Source: Clostridiales bacterium
GTDB lineage: Bacteria; Bacillota; Clostridia; Lachnospirales; WRAX01
Reading direction: 5' to 3'
Length of the DNA stretch: 64,000 bases
Assembly: GCA_031265685.1 (NCBI GenBank)
Contig: JAISCI010000073.1
Location: 8,915-72,914, forward strand
Part shown: positions 43,242 to 50,805 of the stretch, piece by piece
Position numbering within the stretch: the first letter of the stretch is position 1
How the letters are laid out: every line of letters starts with the position of its first letter
Program-made: the position numbers and the translations under genes
Notes under the pieces: model-generated
What the model was told of the DNA's origin: nothing
Database searches by the model: none
Seen by the model: only the letters and a program-made list of their open reading frames with translations

Positions 43242-43450
43242 TACTAATCTCCATTTAAGGAATAGAAAAAATTTTTCAAGTCTGCGCCTGAACCAAGGTA
43301 ATTTTCGCGTGACAGAATTTTGCGTGAATTGAAGCATTATCGTGTGGTTCAAACGATAATGCGATGCAAAATTCGTCCGTGCGAAAATTCATTACGCGGA
43401 CGCGCTTCCGCTTTGAAAAATCTTTTCTACCAGTCTAACAGAGATTAGTA
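43242..43450. mobile_element. Full-length (205-bp core) nested-palindrome MITE-like element flanked by TA/TA
   Basis: The core 43244-43448 begins CTAATCTCCATTTAAGG.. and ends ..CAGTCTAACAGAGATTAG. It contains nested inverted repeats AATTTTCGC/GCGAAAATT, GAATTTTGC (43315-23)/GCAAAATTC (43366-74) and GCATTATCG (43334-42)/CGATAATGC (43354-62). There is no ORF. TA dinucleotides sit at 43242-43 and 43449-50. Confidence 0.8.
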
Positions 43451-44158
43451 TCAATCGCAGTACATTATTGTTGCGTGCCGGTGAAACTGCAGTACCGAAG
43501 CCGGCGCCATCGGCGTAACCGGTTCCTCGATCATCCTGCGCAGCGCCTCTTTCTTGTCCTCGCCGCACGCGATCAGCAATATGCCGCGCGCTTGCATAAT
43601 CGTGTTGATGCCCATGCTTATAGCTTTCTTCGGCATCTCCTCGCCTTTCGCGAAGAACCGCGCGTTGGCCTCCAGCGTGTCTTCCGTCAGATCGACAAGA
43701 TACGTCTCGCGCGCGAAGCTGTCCGACGGCTCATTGAAGCCGATGTGCCCGTTGCGGCCAATGCCGAGCAGCTGCAGATCTATGCCCCCCGCCTTCCGGA
43801 TCGCTTTCTCATACCGCGCGCACTCCGCCGCCGCGTCGTCCGTCGAGCCGTCCGGGATGTGAATGTTCTCTTCTTTTATATTGACGTACTGGAACAGCTT
43901 TTCGCGCATATAGTACCGGTAGCTGCGGGGGTGGAACGGCGGCAGGCCGTAATACTCGTCCAGATTAAACGTCGTTATGTCGGCAAAGTCGATTACCCCG
44001 CCGATGCGGAGCGCGGCCAGCTCGGCGTAGACGCCTTCCGGCGTCGATCCCGTCGCGAGACCCAGCGTGCTCCTTGGGTTGTGTATCATCTGCGCCGCGA
44101 TGAATATGGCGGCTTTTTTGCTCAAGTCCTGATACCCCGACGTTTTTATTATTTTCAA
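43451..44158 (-). CDS. nagB: Glucosamine-6-phosphate deaminase
   Basis: 235 aa. TTG start after AAGGGGG. LGLATGSTP, GIGRNGHIGFNEP, and ISMGI motifs. Confidence 0.9.
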   Translation of the reverse strand: MKIIKTSGYQDLSKKAAIFIAAQMIHNPRSTLGLATGSTPEGVYAELAALRIGGVIDFADITTFNLDEYYGLPPFHPRSYRYYMREKLFQYVNIKEENIHIPDGSTDDAAAECARYEKAIRKAGGIDLQLLGIGRNGHIGFNEPSDSFARETYLVDLTEDTLEANARFFAKGEEMPKKAISMGINTIMQARGILLIACGEDKKEALRRMIEEPVTPMAPASVLQFHRHATIMYCD

Positions 44159-45091
44159 TTATACCGCCCCCTTCCCTTTGCGGCACAGGCGTATCGCGCC
44201 CCAAACGGGTTCCCGTTTGATCTCCGCTACGCTTACGCGCGGATAGACGGCGCTTACGCGCGCGGCGAACATCGCCAGCAGCGTTGGGTTGTTCTGTATG
44301 CTGCCGCCGCTGACCGCGACGCTCAGATCGTCCTGCCCAAGCTTTTTAAGGATAGCGTCCGTGAGCGCGAACAGCTCCTCGGCGGCTTCCTCGAGTATCT
44401 CGCGGCAAACGGCGTCGCCCGCTTCGGCGCCTTCCTGAACCATGACGCAAAACTCCGCTATCTCGGGCTTGCCGATGCCTCCGTCTCCGTAAAGGGGTTC
44501 GATGGCGTCCGGCAGGTTGGACACGCCGAGTTTATCCATGACCTTCCCCGTGAGGACGGTCTGGCGGCCGCGCCCGTCGTAGGCCAGAAACGCGCGGCGG
44601 ATCGCCTCCTTGCCGATCCAGTACCCGGAGCCGCCGTCGTCGAGGATGTGCCCCCAGCCGCCGCACCGCGCGATTGTGCCGTCCGCGCCGGCGCCATACG
44701 CGATGGAACCCGTTCCCGAGATGATTATAACGCCCGGGCCTCCGTCCGTCGCGGCGGCCAGCGCCAGAAGGCTGTCGTTGACGGCGGCGACGGGGCAGGC
44801 GAAACCGGACTCGCGCACGAGGCTCTCCATCTGCCCGCAAGCCGCAGGAAAGTCCAGCCCGGCGCTGCCGACGCATACGCCGAGACATCCCTCGGGCGAA
44901 AGCCCGCCTTCCGCGAACATCCGCGCGAACAGCGAACGCAGTGTTTCGCGCACCTCGGAAACCTGGTTCGACGCCAGGTTGGTGCTGCCGCCGTACAGTA
45001 CAGCCACAGGCTCCTCGTTCTTATCGACCGCGAGCAGCCGGCTCTTCGTGCCGCCGCCGTCGATGCCGACGTAATACTCCATATGCCGCAT
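44159..45091 (-). CDS. N-acetylglucosamine kinase (BadF/BadG/BcrA/BcrD ATPase family)
   Basis: 310 aa. YVGIDGGGTKSRL phosphate-1 motif, ISGTGSIAYG, and GGWGHILDDGGSGYWIG. Confidence 0.75.
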   Translation of the reverse strand: MRHMEYYVGIDGGGTKSRLLAVDKNEEPVAVLYGGSTNLASNQVSEVRETLRSLFARMFAEGGLSPEGCLGVCVGSAGLDFPAACGQMESLVRESGFACPVAAVNDSLLALAAATDGGPGVIIISGTGSIAYGAGADGTIARCGGWGHILDDGGSGYWIGKEAIRRAFLAYDGRGRQTVLTGKVMDKLGVSNLPDAIEPLYGDGGIGKPEIAEFCVMVQEGAEAGDAVCREILEEAAEELFALTDAILKKLGQDDLSVAVSGGSIQNNPTLLAMFAARVSAVYPRVSVAEIKREPVWGAIRLCRKGKGAV

Positions 45092-45129
45092 ACAGCAAAC
45101 CCTTTCGGAATTTTCAAAATTTACGAGAT

Positions 45130-46446
45130 TTACTTAAAGAATCTCGGCAGGTACCGCTTGTGCGCCTCCAGCATCTCGAGAACCACCGCCTTCGCCGCCG
45201 AGTCGGACGGCGTGAGCGGGTTGACCGAAAGCGCCAGAATGGCTTTGTCAGCGTCGCCCTCGACCGCCGCCTCGACCACGAGCCGCTCAAACGACTTGAT
45301 TTGCTGAACCAGTCCGCTGACCGCCATGGGCAGTTCGCCGACCGCGAGCGGCACGGGTCCTCCGCCCGTTATGACGCAGCTGACCTCGACGGCGCTCTCC
45401 GCCGGTATCCCCGCGATCGCGCCGTTGTTGCGCGTGTCCACGGCCTGTATGTCGCGCCGGTCGGTATAAATTGATTCGATAAGGCTGCACGCCGCGTCCG
45501 AATAATACGCGCCGCCGCGCGCCTCGAGCTGGGGCGGCTTGACGTCGAGCGTCTCGTCGCGGTACAGCTCGAACAGCTCTCGCTCGATCTTCTGTACCTG
45601 CCGCGCGCGCGTCTCCCCGGCGCGGAACCGCTCAAGCTCATCCGCCAGCTGCCGGTCCTTGAGATAGTAGTAGCTGTGGTACGGGCATGGCAGTACGCCG
45701 AGCGCCCGCAGAAACTCCGGCTCGTACCGCGCGGGCATGATGTTCTTCATCGTCGCCGCGCCGCGCTCCGGATCGGACGCAAGCTCAAGTAGCCGCCGCG
45801 TTACGTCCTTGCCGTCCAGCAGCGCGCGCAGCGCGTAAACCATGTGGTTAAGCCCTCCGAACGTGACGTTTACGCGATCCGCGCCGACGCCCAGCAGTTT
45901 CGCTATCTCCCTGCTCATGTGGATGGGTACGTTGCAGAGTCCGACGACGCGCTTTACCGCGCCGTAACGCAGACAGGCCTCCGTGACCATCCCGGCGGGG
46001 TTCGAGAAGTTGATCAGCCACGCGTCCGGGCAAAGTTCCCGCATGTCCTCCGTTATATCGAGGATAACGGGTATCGTCCGGAACGCGTTGAACATGCCGC
46101 CCGCGCCGTTCGTCTCCTGCCCGAGCATACCGTGCTCCAGCGGGACGCGCTCATCAATCTCGCGCGCCGCCAGCTGCCCCACGCGTATCTGCGTCGTTAC
46201 GAAATCCGCGCCCGCCAGCGCCTCTCGGCGGTCATACGAGAGCCGCACGTCTATCGGTAAGCCGGACTTTTTGACCATGCGGCGCGCCAGCGCCCCGACT
46301 GTCTCCAGCTTCTCCCTGCCCTCTGGGATGTCAACCAGCCAGATCTCACGCGCGGGAAGCTCGGCGTAGCGCTTGATAAAGCCCTCGATCAGTTCCGGCG
46401 TGTAACTGGAGCCGCCGCCGATCGTGACTATTTTCACGCCGTCCAT
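45130..46446 (-). CDS. GH4 6-phospho-beta-glucosidase (ChbF/CelF-like)
   Basis: Start ATG 46446 (GAGGGA RBS). KIVTIGGGSSYTPELIEGFIKRY NAD-binding N-terminus, NFSNPAG, and GLCNVP. Confidence 0.85.
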   Translation of the reverse strand: MDGVKIVTIGGGSSYTPELIEGFIKRYAELPAREIWLVDIPEGREKLETVGALARRMVKKSGLPIDVRLSYDRREALAGADFVTTQIRVGQLAAREIDERVPLEHGMLGQETNGAGGMFNAFRTIPVILDITEDMRELCPDAWLINFSNPAGMVTEACLRYGAVKRVVGLCNVPIHMSREIAKLLGVGADRVNVTFGGLNHMVYALRALLDGKDVTRRLLELASDPERGAATMKNIMPARYEPEFLRALGVLPCPYHSYYYLKDRQLADELERFRAGETRARQVQKIERELFELYRDETLDVKPPQLEARGGAYYSDAACSLIESIYTDRRDIQAVDTRNNGAIAGIPAESAVEVSCVITGGGPVPLAVGELPMAVSGLVQQIKSFERLVVEAAVEGDADKAILALSVNPLTPSDSAAKAVVLEMLEAHKRYLPRFFK

Positions 46447-46454
46447 CCAATCCC

Positions 46455-47204
46455 TCACAGTTCCGCGAAGGAACACAGCTCATGCCCGTTCGCTTTGATA
46501 AAGTCTTTTATCTCTTTACCGGTGAGAACGTCCATCTCGAAGAAGCGCCGCGTGTTGTACGAGCTGTTCTTAAAAAGAAACAGGTCGCAATAGGCCGGGT
46601 GGCACATGATCTCGAGAGACGCGCCCCGCCGCGGCGATATTATCTCCCGGAGGCGTTCGGCGGTCGCGCCGCCGCCGTAGAACGTATCGTCGAAGGCGTC
46701 GGTCGTCACGATACCCGCGTATTCGCCCGTCAGCAGGCTCCTGTCATACATACGGACCTTGACGCCGTATTTTTTCGCCAGCTTGAGGAACACGCCGGAC
46801 ACGCCGGGCAGTTTGTGCGTATGGTGGTGACTGTCGAAATGATCGGGGATTATGTCGGCTTTATATACCTTCCTGATCTGCGCCTCGTATTCGGACTCTA
46901 CCTCCGCCAGATCCAGCTCCCCGGCTCTGGCGCGGCGCTCCGTCTCCGTCAGTTTGAGGAAATTTCCGTCGGCGTCCGTCAGCGTCCTGTACGCGCCACC
47001 GACGGCCTTGCCCGCCGTCAGCGTCAGATGGACGCCGACGCCAAGCCCGGGGTTCCGGCGCGATACGCGCGCGGCGTGCCCGAAACCGGGCATACCCGCC
47101 ATCATCGTGGTCGATCGGACGACGCCGTTCCGGTAGGACTCAATGATGCCGAGGTTGACGCCCTTGGAATGCCCGAAGTCGTCCGCGTTCACAATTATTT
47201 TCAA
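46455..47204 (-). CDS. chbG: ChbG/YdjC-family carbohydrate deacetylase
   Basis: 249 aa. MKIIVNADDFGHS.GVN.GI metal-binding N-terminus and DSHHHTH. Confidence 0.8.
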   Translation of the reverse strand: MKIIVNADDFGHSKGVNLGIIESYRNGVVRSTTMMAGMPGFGHAARVSRRNPGLGVGVHLTLTAGKAVGGAYRTLTDADGNFLKLTETERRARAGELDLAEVESEYEAQIRKVYKADIIPDHFDSHHHTHKLPGVSGVFLKLAKKYGVKVRMYDRSLLTGEYAGIVTTDAFDDTFYGGGATAERLREIISPRRGASLEIMCHPAYCDLFLFKNSSYNTRRFFEMDVLTGKEIKDFIKANGHELCSFAEL

Positions 47205-47524
47205 CTCTTCTCACCCGCCATTCTGCCGTACAGATCGACGAACTCCCGCGCCAGTTCCTTCGCGAGCATGGCCGTCATGATATGATCCTGCGCGTGAACC
47301 ATGAACAGGTTGATCTCGGTGCGCTCGCCCCGCGCCTCCGCCTGAATCAGACCGGTCTGCGTCTCGTGGACTTTGCGCGTCTCGCCCTCGGAGGCTTCAA
47401 GCGCTTCGCGCGCGGCTGCCATATCGCCTTCCTTCGCCAGGCGGATCGCGTCCATCGCGAAGCTCCGCGCGCTGCCGGCGCTGACGATCAGCTCCATTAT
47501 GAGTGTCTCCATCTTGCTATCCAT
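47201..47524 (-). CDS. PTS lactose/cellobiose-family EIIA
   Basis: 107 aa. Three-helix EIIA pattern IVSAGSARS..A...A..GD...A and LFMVHAQDHIMTA with the phosphorylatable His. Confidence 0.85.
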   Translation of the reverse strand: MDSKMETLIMELIVSAGSARSFAMDAIRLAKEGDMAAAREALEASEGETRKVHETQTGLIQAEARGERTEINLFMVHAQDHIMTAMLAKELAREFVDLYGRMAGEKS

Positions 47525-47623: not shown

Positions 47624-47672
47624 CCAGCTTCCAGCCTCTAGCTTCCAGCCTCTAGCTTCCAGCCTCCAGCTC
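47624..47672. repeat. 14-bp tandem repeat (CCAGCCTCTAGCTT x ~3.5) straddling the EIIC stop codon
   Basis: 47631-44 and 47645-58 are identical. 47659-72 is CCAGCCTCCAGCTC. The EIIC TAG (47652-54, minus strand) lies in the second unit. Confidence 0.85.
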
Positions 47673-48989
47673 GCGCTTCTCCTCGATCTTATCCGCGATC
47701 TTTACGAACGGCAGATAGATAAGTACGGACAGCGCCAGGTTGATGAGCTGGACGACCGGCGCGCGCCAGTCCATTCCTGTCGCAAACAGGCCGGAGAGTA
47801 TCGGCGGCGTGGTCCAAGGGATCATATAGCTGACCGGATTCACAAGGCCGGCGGCCGTCGCGGCGTAAGCCACGATAAGGCTGACGATCGGCGCGATGAT
47901 GAACGGAACAGCGAATATCGGGTTCAGGACGATCGGCAGGCCGAACAGCACCGGCTCGTTGATATTGAACAGGCCGGGAGCCGCGCCCAGGCGTCCGATC
48001 ATGCGGTTCTGTTTGGACTTGCCGATAAGGATCAGCGCGATCACAAGCCCGAGGCCGACTCCGACTCCGCCCATATAGATGAAGGCGTCCGCGAAGGACT
48101 TATTGAAGATAAGCGGCGACGCCCCGCTGAGATTGTTCGCCACGGCGTTGGCGTTGAACGTCTGGAGTATGCCCTCAAACATATTCGCGCCGTGTACGCC
48201 GAACAGCCAGAAGATATGCGTCAGCAGCACTACCGCGAGGCCGAACCCGAACGTTCCGGAGGCTTCCGCCATCGGGGCGACGAACGTCTTGTTGGCTATG
48301 TCGAAGAAGTTGGTGTAGCCCTCCGCTCCGTATGTACCGACAAGCGCCGCAACGACGTTGACGATAAGCACTGTGAGTATGGCCGGGAAGAGCGACGCGA
48401 ACGAGCGCGCCACGGCGGGCGGAACGCCGTCCGGCATTTTGATGACCAGTTTATCCGCCTTGGACAGCCGCACGAATATCTCGGTAGTCACAAGGGCCAG
48501 GATGATACCGACGAACAGCGCGCCGGAATTGAGGTATCCCCAGCTGAGATTGCCCCACGCGCCGTCCGCCGACACCTGCGGAACCACGCTAAGATACGTG
48601 GCCAAGGTGACTATCGCCGCGGAGAGCTTGTCGCCGTCGTACCATTTGGCGAGGTTATACGCGATCGCGGCCACCGCCAGCAGCGACAGCATCCCGAACG
48701 TACCCCACCACACGTTGCCGTTCAGCGTTACGATCCACTGTAGCGCGCCGATCTCACCAAGGACTTCCTTGAGCATCGTCTTACCGCCGTCCATACCGCT
48801 GCCGATCGGAAAATTGTTGATCAGCGTCACGATAGAACCGACGATCATGATCGGCATAACCGTGACGAAGCCGTCGCGGATAGCGCCGAGATGGCGCTGA
48901 CGGCCGATCGCCCCCGCCGCCAGCGAGAACTTGTCAACAAATCCGTCCAAAAACTTGGACCAGCCTTGCTTTGCCGATTTCTCAGCCAC
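47652..48989 (-). CDS. PTS cellobiose/chitobiose-family EIIC permease
   Basis: Start GTG 48989, 8 nt after AAGGAGG. 445 aa and multi-TM. It begins ..LAAGAIGRQRHLGAIRDGF and has NEPVLFGLPIVLNP, typical of lactose/cellobiose EIIC. The upstream 42 codons of the six-frame ORF are repeat DNA. Confidence 0.85.
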   Translation of the reverse strand: MAEKSAKQGWSKFLDGFVDKFSLAAGAIGRQRHLGAIRDGFVTVMPIMIVGSIVTLINNFPIGSGMDGGKTMLKEVLGEIGALQWIVTLNGNVWWGTFGMLSLLAVAAIAYNLAKWYDGDKLSAAIVTLATYLSVVPQVSADGAWGNLSWGYLNSGALFVGIILALVTTEIFVRLSKADKLVIKMPDGVPPAVARSFASLFPAILTVLIVNVVAALVGTYGAEGYTNFFDIANKTFVAPMAEASGTFGFGLAVVLLTHIFWLFGVHGANMFEGILQTFNANAVANNLSGASPLIFNKSFADAFIYMGGVGVGLGLVIALILIGKSKQNRMIGRLGAAPGLFNINEPVLFGLPIVLNPIFAVPFIIAPIVSLIVAYAATAAGLVNPVSYMIPWTTPPILSGLFATGMDWRAPVVQLINLALSVLIYLPFVKIADKIEEKRELEAGS

Positions 48990-49054
48990 TGCTTTCTCCT
49001 CCTTAATACTTTCATATTCCCGACAGACGCTGACAGCGCCCGTTTGTGACCGGT

Positions 49055-49282
49055 GAATTTTGCATCGCATTATCGCTTGATGGAATTTTGCGTGAACCAT
49101 GCAAAATTCGTTCACGCGATAATGCTTCGAACCCGCAAAATTCCGCCTGAATCCGCAAAATTCTCAAGTAAATTTTGCCTGAACCCGCAAAACGAATTTT
49201 GCATCGCATTATCGCTTGATGGAATTTTGCGTGAACCATGCAAAATTCGTTCACGCGATAATGCTTCGAACCCGCAAAATTC
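49055..49282. repeat. Two identical 89-bp triple-nested hairpin units (139-bp period) of the GAATTTTGC family between the EIIB and EIIC cistrons
   Basis: Unit 1 (49055-49143) equals unit 2 (49194-49282), 89/89. The unit reads GAATTTTGC-atc-GCATTATCGC-ttgatg-GAATTTTGC-gtgaaccat-GCAAAATTC-gttcac-GCGATAATGC-ttcgaaccc-GCAAAATTC. The 50-bp spacer also contains GCAAAATTC and AAATTTTGC. Confidence 0.9.
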
Positions 49283-49288
49283 TTAACC

Positions 49289-49665: not shown

Positions 49666-50805
49666 TTAACTCAAAAACTCGAACGCCTTGAAAATCTTGT
49701 CCGCGCCGTAGACAAAGCCGCCGCACAGTCCGGCTATGCTCATCAGCGCGCTGGGGATCACTTCCGGGCGGCGGAATGTCGTTTCCGCCAAGGCCGCGTC
49801 TATGCCGTCAAACAGAGACTGGCCCAGCTCGAGATATTCGCCGCCGACCGCCACTGTCGGTATGTCGAGCGTCAGTACGCAGTTGTATATCAGTCTGCCC
49901 AGTTCAAAGCCCGTCTCGAATATCGCCCGGCGGACGGTTTCGTCGCCGTCCTTCGCCAATGCCACGATCCGCTCGAACGTAAGCGTCTCATCCGCTTCCG
50001 TCAGCCGCCGCGCCCGCTTGATCAGGCCGTCCATCGCGATTACGTCCTCGGCGCTGCCGCCGCCCGGCAGGATCGAATAGCCGATCTCACCGGCGGCGCA
50101 CCCGACGCCCTCGTAGAGTTTCCCGTCGATAACTATTCCCGCGCCAAGCCCCACTCCGCACATGACGTAGATCAGGCTGCCGGGCGGCGTCTTGAGTCCA
50201 AGCCGCGTCTCCCCGACAGCGGCAAGGTTGACGTCGTTGACGACGTATACGCCGGTCGCGTAGCGTTCCTGCAGGAAGTCCGGCAGGGCGATCTCCGTCC
50301 AGGCGTGGTGGCGCTCCTTCGAGAAATGTTCCCCGGCTTCGCCCTTTATGACGCCGGGCTGGGATATAACGATAGCCCCGAGCTTATCCGGCGCCACGGA
50401 AGCGTCGCGCAGAATAACGTCGAACGCCTCGCCCACGAGCCGGCGGCGCTCCGCGGGCGACGCGCCCGGCGGCGCCTTGACCTTGCCAAGCCCGGCCAGC
50501 TGGTATCTCAAATCGCACACAGCGCACACCGGGTCGCGGAAAGACAAATCCACCGCCCCGACATATTTGAAGCGCTCGTTGACGCGTATCAGGATCGGCT
50601 TGCGACCGCCCGACTTCGCGGCTTCGCCCTCACCCTCCTCCAACAGCACTCCAGCCTTGATCAGATCGGACACGTTGCTGGAAACGGCGGGTTTGCTGAT
50701 GCCAAGCTCTTTGGCGATCCGCGCTTTGGAGATGCCTCCGCTGCCTATAATCAGATCAATTATGGCTTTTTGATTGATGGCGCGGCTCGCCGACCTATCC
50801 GCCAC
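49666..50805 (-). CDS. ROK-family transcriptional regulator
   Basis: 379 aa. N-terminal wHTH ISKARIAKELGISKPAVSSNVSDLI, a ROK sugar-kinase-like body (GVGLGAGIVIDGKLYEG) and a Cys/His region. Confidence 0.8.
   Translation of the reverse strand: MADRSASRAINQKAIIDLIIGSGGISKARIAKELGISKPAVSSNVSDLIKAGVLLEEGEGEAAKSGGRKPILIRVNERFKYVGAVDLSFRDPVCAVCDLRYQLAGLGKVKAPPGASPAERRRLVGEAFDVILRDASVAPDKLGAIVISQPGVIKGEAGEHFSKERHHAWTEIALPDFLQERYATGVYVVNDVNLAAVGETRLGLKTPPGSLIYVMCGVGLGAGIVIDGKLYEGVGCAAGEIGYSILPGGGSAEDVIAMDGLIKRARRLTEADETLTFERIVALAKDGDETVRRAIFETGFELGRLIYNCVLTLDIPTVAVGGEYLELGQSLFDGIDAALAETTFRRPEVIPSALMSIAGLCGGFVYGADKIFKAFEFLS

Follow-up and report, generated by a model that had tools for sequence, protein, structure and literature searches.

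The 228-bp block that separates the EIIB and EIIC genes of a chb-like operon, at positions 49055-49282 of the window (the whole stretch of 64,000 nucleotides that was analyzed), is very probably an insertion, followed by a recent local duplication, of a new lineage-specific repeat family similar to the REP/BIME elements. The block contains two identical copies of an 89-nt palindromic unit. It is an insertion relative to the same junction in related genomes, its units are members of a family that is spread through the host genome, and the doubling of the unit is young.

The host genome (2.2 Mb in 130 contigs, 58% G+C) is a short-read metagenome-assembled genome that is 91% complete. Exact repeats in such an assembly may be collapsed or miscounted, including the number of units and spacers at the EIIB-EIIC locus.

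Structure of the EIIB-EIIC gap

The genes of the operon are arranged in the order ROK, EIIB, EIIC, EIIA, YdjC, GH4, kinase and NagB, all on the minus strand (Table 1). Every reading frame of the downstream cluster, from EIIA to the NagB-like gene (43451..47524), is intact.

Table 1. Genes and repeat features of the operon (positions in the window)
Feature	Position	Strand	Evidence
ROK-family regulator with N-terminal winged helix-turn-helix; first gene of the cluster	49666..50805	-	Pfam ROK 4e-25, HTH_24 5.6e-8
PTS EIIB, lactose/cellobiose family, 102 aa	49289..49597	-	Pfam PTS_IIB 3.3e-19
89-nt three-layer palindromic unit, copy 2, transcribed first	49194..49282	.	89/89 vs copy 1
50-nt spacer of two degenerate basic hairpins in direct orientation	49144..49193	.	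direct repeat D2, 87% identical
89-nt three-layer palindromic unit, copy 1	49055..49143	.	identity, fold, covariation over 34 copies
Unique EIIC leader, 62 nt, with Shine-Dalgarno sequence AAGGAGG	48993..49054	-	sequence; no family match
PTS EIIC, 446 aa, intact	47652..48992	-	Pfam PTS_EIIC 5.8e-48
EIIA	47201-47524	-	Pfam
YdjC/ChbG	46455-47204	-	Pfam
GH4	45130-46476	-	Pfam
BadF/BadG-type kinase	44159-45091	-	Pfam
NagB-like isomerase	43451-44158	-	Pfam
Second family cluster, at the 3' end of the gene cluster, after the nagB-like gene	43242..43450	.	sequence; 9-mer matches at 43315, 43366

The stop codon of EIIB (TAG) is located at 49291-49289, and the repeat begins 6 nt beyond it. The gap proper, 48993-49288, is 296 nt long and consists of these 6 nt, the 228-nt repeat and the 62-nt leader of EIIC. 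The initial annotation gave the gap as 299 bp, a value obtained when counting runs between the first bases of the stop and start codons, and not that of the gap proper. The start codon of EIIC is the GTG at 48992, 8 nt past the AAGGAGG motif, and the sequence agrees with the earlier observation that this gene retains a start of its own. The EIIC leader folds weakly when considered alone (z = -1.2). Together with nucleotides 49283-49288, it presumably represents the original spacer of 68 nt.

The two 89-nt units are direct repeats with a distance of 139 nt from start to start, and they are identical at every position in a direct-repeat comparison. Their homology ends precisely at the unit edges. 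The sequence of the unit is GAATTTTGC-ATC-GCATTATCGC-TTGATG-GAATTTTGC-GTGAACCAT-GCAAAATTC-GTTCAC-GCGATAATGC-TTCGAACCC-GCAAAATTC. It contains three concentric stems, an outer (GAATTTTGC/GCAAAATTC), a middle (GCATTATCGC/GCGATAATGC) and an inner one (GAATTTTGC/GCAAAATTC), which are separated by internal loops of 3x9 and 6x6 nucleotides. For a single unit folded as RNA, the energy is -37.1 kcal/mol when read as in the mRNA (z = -5.3) and -40.1 kcal/mol on the antisense strand (z = -7.3), and the value for the whole EIIB-EIIC gap is -114 kcal/mol (z = -6.9). Both the perfect identity of the units and their three stems had been recognized in the initial annotation and are reproduced here.

The 50-nt spacer had been said to carry further half-sites. 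These half-sites form the two degenerate hairpins, which have 8-nt loops, are located at ~49139-49163 and 49170-49192, and follow the pattern AAATTYYGC-CTGAAYCC-GCAAAA. Their loop, CTGAACCC/GGGTTCAG, is the most frequent 8-nt loop of the family. All four units at this locus are in direct orientation, and nested arrangements are found elsewhere in the genome. In BIMEs, units alternate in orientation, and the clusters bind IHF or gyrase.

No terminator-like hairpin with a U tract was detected in 49055-49282. The stem has an AU-rich base, beyond which the sequence continues with GUUUUG or ACCGGU.

Each unit also contains a weak sigma-70-like match, TTCACG-16 nt-GATAAT (9 of 12 positions), on the minus strand and directed towards EIIC (49069-49096 and 49208-49235). 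The -10 hexamer of this match comes from the B' module GCGATAATGC, and many copies of the family would therefore carry it. The match could mean that the element supplies transcription rather than structure alone, but no conclusion is based on it.

The second family cluster of the operon (Table 1) has A and B modules as in the 89-mer, with the short (GAT) and long (GTGAATTGAA) linkers in mirrored positions. Its B hairpin has a plain 9-nt loop.

Organization of the repeat family

A search of the host genome with the 89-mer gives 112 matches, and about 43 full-length copies are left after removal of overlaps, with 79-97% identity to the unit. The 9-mer GAATTTTGC is present in 341 copies in the genome, and its complement in 348. 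In the window the 9-mer is found 17 times, compared to an expected 0.84. When variants of the stem are allowed, there are about 475 basic hairpins of 26-27 nt (GAATTTTGC-N8/9-GCAAAATTC) in 402 clusters, and the family masks 31 kb, or 1.4%, of the host genome.

The basic hairpin has a 9-bp stem closed by an apparent loop of 8-9 nt. The 9-nt version of this loop is in fact x-TG-NNN-CA-y, with a G.A or T.C mismatch, a 2-bp extension (TG/CA) and a tip of 3 nt. The stems fall into subtypes with matched arms, GAATTTTGC, GAAGTTTGC and GAATTTCGC belonging to one type and GCATTATCGC, GCATTTTCGC and GCATTTTTGC to a second. Units are found solo, side by side, or stacked concentrically with the second stem type (GCATTATCGC), and the subtypes of different layers combine freely. 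Over 34 aligned copies, the linkers between the modules have fixed lengths, as they do in BIMEs: 3 nt (ATC/GAT), 6 nt (TTGAxx/xxTCAC) and 9-10 nt (TTCGAAYCAM).

Covariation across the 34 full-length copies supports the three-helix fold. In the three helices 97.2% of the cells are paired, and there are 55 compensatory cells, with changes on both sides in 10 pairs. None of 500 shuffles gave pairing or a covariation score as high as observed, and pairing falls to 29-48% if the 3' partner is shifted by 1-3 columns.

Most of the 89-mers, and most of the small hairpins that appear to be solo, are enclosed by further outer stems. The 89-mer thus captures a single section of an architecture that is modular and layered. 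One solo copy (C4:19453-19542) is 97% identical to the unit and has unique flanking sequences. As both this copy and those in the PTS operon have clean edges, this subtype behaves as a discrete unit of 89-90 nt. Its terminal inverted repeats are 9 bp long (GAATTTTGC and GCAAAATTC), a feature shared with MITEs.

Tandem Repeats Finder detects 54 tandem arrays of family units in the genome, several of which are 100% identical. The next closest copy to the PTS units has 97% identity, and typical copies have 79-87%. Together with the perfect doublets elsewhere in the genome, this indicates that local doubling is characteristic of the family and that the PTS operon carries a young one, in line with the recent duplication proposed in the initial annotation. 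The array periods favor multiples of three, with 30, 33 and 36 nt accounting for about half of 53 arrays compared to an expectation of one third. This preference may be linked to the copies that are in frame within genes.

Distribution of the family in the host genome

Based on crude ORF-based gene calls, 163 of the clusters are located between co-directional genes, 47 between convergent genes and 41 between divergent genes, and 73 are at contig ends. Only 78 are inside called genes, compared to 309 expected at random, and about half of these are found only in over-extended 5' ends of the gene calls. The family therefore has the character of REP-type elements, that is, palindromes of 26-27 nt in high copy number outside genes.

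By the same gene calls, the family is present in 176 co-directional gaps. In 44 of them the non-repeat spacer is 80 nt or less, and the insertion at the PTS junction is the largest of the 44. The density of clusters per kb of non-repeat spacer is 2.4 at these tight junctions and 0.5-0.8 in the other intergenic classes. The spacer between rpoB and rpoC (C60:16380-16460) contains two hairpins directly after the rpoB stop codon, with the GGTTCAG-type loop of the family and related GAATTCCGC stems. The rpoB and rpoC genes are co-transcribed and essential, and the hairpins there must therefore tolerate read-through transcription. Perfect doublets of the family are found between the genes for an AMP-ligase and a carrier protein (C62:13027-13085), and between an Orn/Lys/Arg decarboxylase gene and speE (C5:26665-26722).

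The distance from the upstream stop codon has a median of about 90 nt across the family, with no peak at 15 nt or less. Proximity to a stop codon, as observed for the PTS copy, is thus not a rule of the family.

A gene for an IS1182-like DDE transposase (Pfam DDE_Tnp_1_6; C14:60239-61819) is interrupted by four separate 27-nt hairpins. Two of these add exactly nine codons in frame and the other two shift the frame, and the gene is therefore dead. A paralogous fragment on another contig (C75) has a hairpin at the same site with its loop inverted, and the homology between the two sequences starts exactly at the hairpin.

The inverted 9-mers at fixed spacing resemble operators, and the gene for a ROK repressor lies 400 nt upstream. 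The block could in principle be an array of operators for a DNA-binding protein such as this regulator, with GAATTTTGC and GCAAAATTC as half-sites. However, there are nearly 700 copies of the 9-mer in the genome, including those at the rpoBC junction and in the transposase pseudogene. The arms co-vary as discrete matched subtypes, unlike the sites of the regulon of one protein, and the relatives with the same ROK-PTS synteny do not have such sites. An operator array is hardly credible in view of these observations.

Comparison with related genomes

The unusual width of the EIIB-EIIC gap, another point of the initial annotation, is evident from a comparison with 17 syntenic relatives (genome and metagenome contigs). 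In these relatives the gap is 21-134 nt long, mostly about 21-62 nt, and a copy of the family is present in none of the 17. Their EIIC proteins are 55-69% identical to that of the host, and their start codons align with GTG 48992. The closest of them is a Bacillota genome with an EIIC of 69% identity, the same gene order and a gap of 28 nt. The metagenome scan gave only relatives of 55-80% identity, so that the comparison of spacing is at the level of genus or family.

The family itself is confined to a narrow lineage. The degenerate hairpin pattern has 264 matches in the host genome, compared to 0-1 per genome in 400 others from the order. A search of 40 relatives found no copy of the 89-mer, and the hairpin pattern has no match in viral contigs.

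The longest spacer among the relatives, 134 nt in a termite-gut contig (Ga0099364_10016283, L036:2339-2474), contains an unrelated unit of ~22 nt (AGCAAATGTGTTGAAAATTAAA) that is repeated about five times in tandem. The EIIB-EIIC junction of another lineage has therefore been the site of expansion of a different repeat.

A Logan contig that encodes an identical EIIB protein has the same TAGGGTTAA|GAATTTTGCGGG junction, and it stops 36 nt after EIIB, inside the repeat. An exact-protein look-up of EIIC in Logan found nothing. The family often breaks the host assembly, as the 73 clusters at contig ends show, and the duplication or even the entire insert could have arisen as a mis-join through a collapsed repeat. 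Such an artefact is very improbable. The junction between EIIB and the repeat is reproduced in the Logan assembly, from a run that may be the source sample of the host genome, and the adjacency of EIIB and EIIC is the gene order conserved in all the relatives. Moreover, the assembly graph requires a unit on both sides of the spacer, and hence at least two identical copies, and perfect doublets are common elsewhere in the genome.

A rival explanation is a cis-regulatory RNA dedicated to the PTS operon, an attenuator, processing site or stabilizer that has been selected to set the EIIB:EIIC ratio. It corresponds to the suggestion in the initial annotation that the structure could uncouple EIIB and EIIC expression in one of these roles. 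The sequence family is found in about 400 clusters beside unrelated genes and at some 44 other tight co-directional junctions, so it is not a structure that belongs to this operon, and all 17 syntenic relatives lack it. The identity of the two copies means that the doubling is recent, which argues against a device under long selection. A search of Rfam, PTS antiterminator targets included, produced no family match, only sub-threshold chance matches to miRNA precursor models. The orientation of the loops relative to transcription has only a weak bias (69 vs 101, ~p = 0.02), and G.U-compatible mismatches have no bias relative to A.C mismatches (37 vs 26, p = 0.21), giving no sign of selection at the RNA level. 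Against these observations stand the high stability of the structure, its position 6 nt past the EIIB stop codon, the separate Shine-Dalgarno sequence of EIIC, and the classical precedent of the REPs in the his and mal operons (PMC3184786, PMC12306157). On balance a dedicated RNA is unlikely, and a structure specific to the PTS operon is not supported. An incidental regulatory side-effect of the block is possible.

Origin of the block and search for a mobilizing enzyme

The insertion and local duplication of a REP/BIME-like element would have occurred in two steps. A copy would have landed in the spacer of ~68 nt, 6 nt past the EIIB stop codon and 62 nt ahead of the EIIC start codon. A local doubling afterwards would have produced the present arrangement of a unit, two small hairpins and a unit. 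The family may spread through recognition of the folded hairpin, or through template switching at the hairpin, together with tandem duplication of the slippage type. Its mobility is deduced from the distribution of the copies and from the presence of near-identical copies that are unlinked.

A six-frame search of the host genome (91% complete) gave no match to the RAYT/Y1 transposase family (PF01797), while control genomes were matched. A conserved 5' head (GTAG or similar) is not present in the flank logo of 186 oriented solo hairpins, which contains only the second outer stem. There is no target-site duplication at the three clean edges, CCGGT|..|CGCCT, AAAAC|..|TTAAC and GCCAA|..|CGCAG. Fragments of IS1182-like DDE elements and a weak IS110-like fragment are present in the genome, neither of which ends in the repeat, and insertion sequences are often lost from metagenome-assembled genomes.

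The multi-copy proteins of the genome, and the genes that are flanked by repeats on both sides, were considered as candidates for the mobilizing enzyme. Among them are fragments of an IS1182-like element, an integrase and a phage portal protein, as well as an amidase, DUF3801, the weak IS110-like fragment and housekeeping genes, none of which is convincing. Those flanked by repeats on both sides are ordinary housekeeping or phage genes.

A short ORF at C69:1272-1631 is located between family hairpins and has a weak match of the IS110 type (PF01548, E = 0.0014, below the curated cut-off). IS110-family elements target REP sequences in other bacteria.

A more specific proposal is that the family represents a minimal mobile DNA that has not yet been described, in which the folded 27-nt hairpin, or a stack of hairpins, would be recognized by a non-RAYT enzyme and inserted preferentially into or beside other hairpins. 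Each added layer leaves a linker of 12 nt, equal to a 9-nt loop plus 3 nt. This, the free mixing of layer subtypes and the four hairpins in one transposase pseudogene would fit such a process. Nesting by insertion was modeled with the linkers parsed as target-site duplications; the flanking triplets do not match, and the model is therefore kept as a hypothetical one. The proposal as a whole is rather doubtful. If it is correct, hairpin-targeted insertion would build concentric 'Russian-doll' palindromes and perfect doublets, even inside operons and genes, and would rapidly supply this lineage with new mRNA structures between cistrons.

Possible effects on the PTS operon

As the downstream genes are intact, and as hairpins of the same or a related kind occur at the rpoBC junction and in other operons, we infer that the block is co-transcribed with the operon, is non-terminating and is not strongly polar. 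On the mRNA, the block would form either two hairpins of -37 kcal/mol or a single long duplex in which the two units pair with each other. The likeliest effect would be an incidental one similar to that of REPs, on differential mRNA stability or processing. The hairpins could stop 3'-exonucleases and thereby shield the ROK-EIIB segment. Alternatively, the duplex between the units could be a site of double-stranded cleavage.

REPs in intercistronic regions affect mRNA stability (PMC3184786), and they reduce translation of the upstream gene only if they are located less than 16 nt from its stop codon (PMC12306157). By analogy, a role as a stabilizer or processing site is plausible for the block, and it would not be specific to the PTS operon. 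As the structure begins 6 nt past the stop codon, termination of EIIB translation may be disturbed. Translation of EIIC would start independently at its own free Shine-Dalgarno sequence.

An annotation of this genome should treat the 296-nt gap between EIIB and EIIC, like many of its other long spacers, as a repeat insertion, and not as an unannotated gene or a dedicated riboswitch-like element. The family is abundant, confined to one lineage, concentric and evidently still duplicating, and no RAYT was found with it, which makes it a convenient system for the spread of palindromes without a known transposase. A second question that it opens is how much the expression of an operon is altered by a new hairpin of -37 kcal/mol. 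The natural place to examine this is the PTS locus, as it has the largest insertion at a tight junction and an 'empty' syntenic comparator in the relatives.

Comparison with known repeat elements

The closest analogues in behavior and architecture are the REP/BIME elements of enterobacteria. Those of Escherichia coli and Salmonella are likewise short imperfect palindromes in hundreds of copies, nearly always extragenic, that are found solo or in clusters assembled from a few unit types with linkers of fixed length. They also undergo local tandem amplification, and they too were first noticed in intercistronic positions in operons (hisJ-hisQ, malE-malF). On the other hand, the sequences are unrelated. 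The stem of the present family is rich in A+T although the genome has 58% G+C, in contrast to the G+C-rich stems of REPs, and neither a 5' head of the GTAG type nor a RAYT gene was found here. Another structural difference is the concentric stacking in up to three or more layers, since REPs stand next to each other in alternating orientation. A different host is involved as well, an uncultured member of the Bacillota, and some copies are in frame within genes.

The REPINs, REP doublets that form hairpins and are mobilized by a RAYT (Pseudomonas fluorescens, PMC3116915), are further analogues. As in the present family, what replicates is a long hairpin composed of smaller palindromes, near-identical copies are unlinked, evolution takes place within one genome, and the family is lineage-specific. 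A REPIN, however, is built from two inverted REPs with a spacer between them and needs a RAYT that is flanked by REPs; no Y1 transposase was found here, and the layers of the present family use two different stem types.

Further analogues are the co-transcribed MITEs, such as Correia/NEMIS of Neisseria, ERIC/IRU of enterobacteria and BOX/RUP of pneumococcus. These elements are 90-200 bp long, have terminal inverted repeats, form a long imperfect hairpin and insert between the genes of operons, as is observed here. The transcripts of Correia elements are processed by RNase III. Correia units differ from the present family in having a TA target duplication and defined termini, as there is no duplication at the three clean edges described above. 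Correia units carry promoters and IHF sites (PMC3184786). Compared to MITEs in general, no parent insertion sequence that shares its ends was found for the family, and the hairpins in fact interrupt the IS1182-like remnants that this genome contains.

For the intragenic copies, the palindromic elements of Rickettsia provide an analogue at the level of the family, as some copies are in frame inside protein genes (two in-frame copies of 27 nt in the present case). The Rickettsia elements differ in being 100-150 bp long and known mostly from coding regions, whereas the PTS copy is intergenic.

Two features that define the REPs associated with RAYTs, the head motif and the RAYT itself, are thus missing from the family, as is one that defines MITEs, the target-site duplication. 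The most suitable description is that of a new family, specific to its lineage, within a known kind of element. REP elements came to light in 1982 through an unusual palindrome that separated two cistrons of a transport operon. Taken as given, the present finding repeats that story in an uncultured gut Bacillota.
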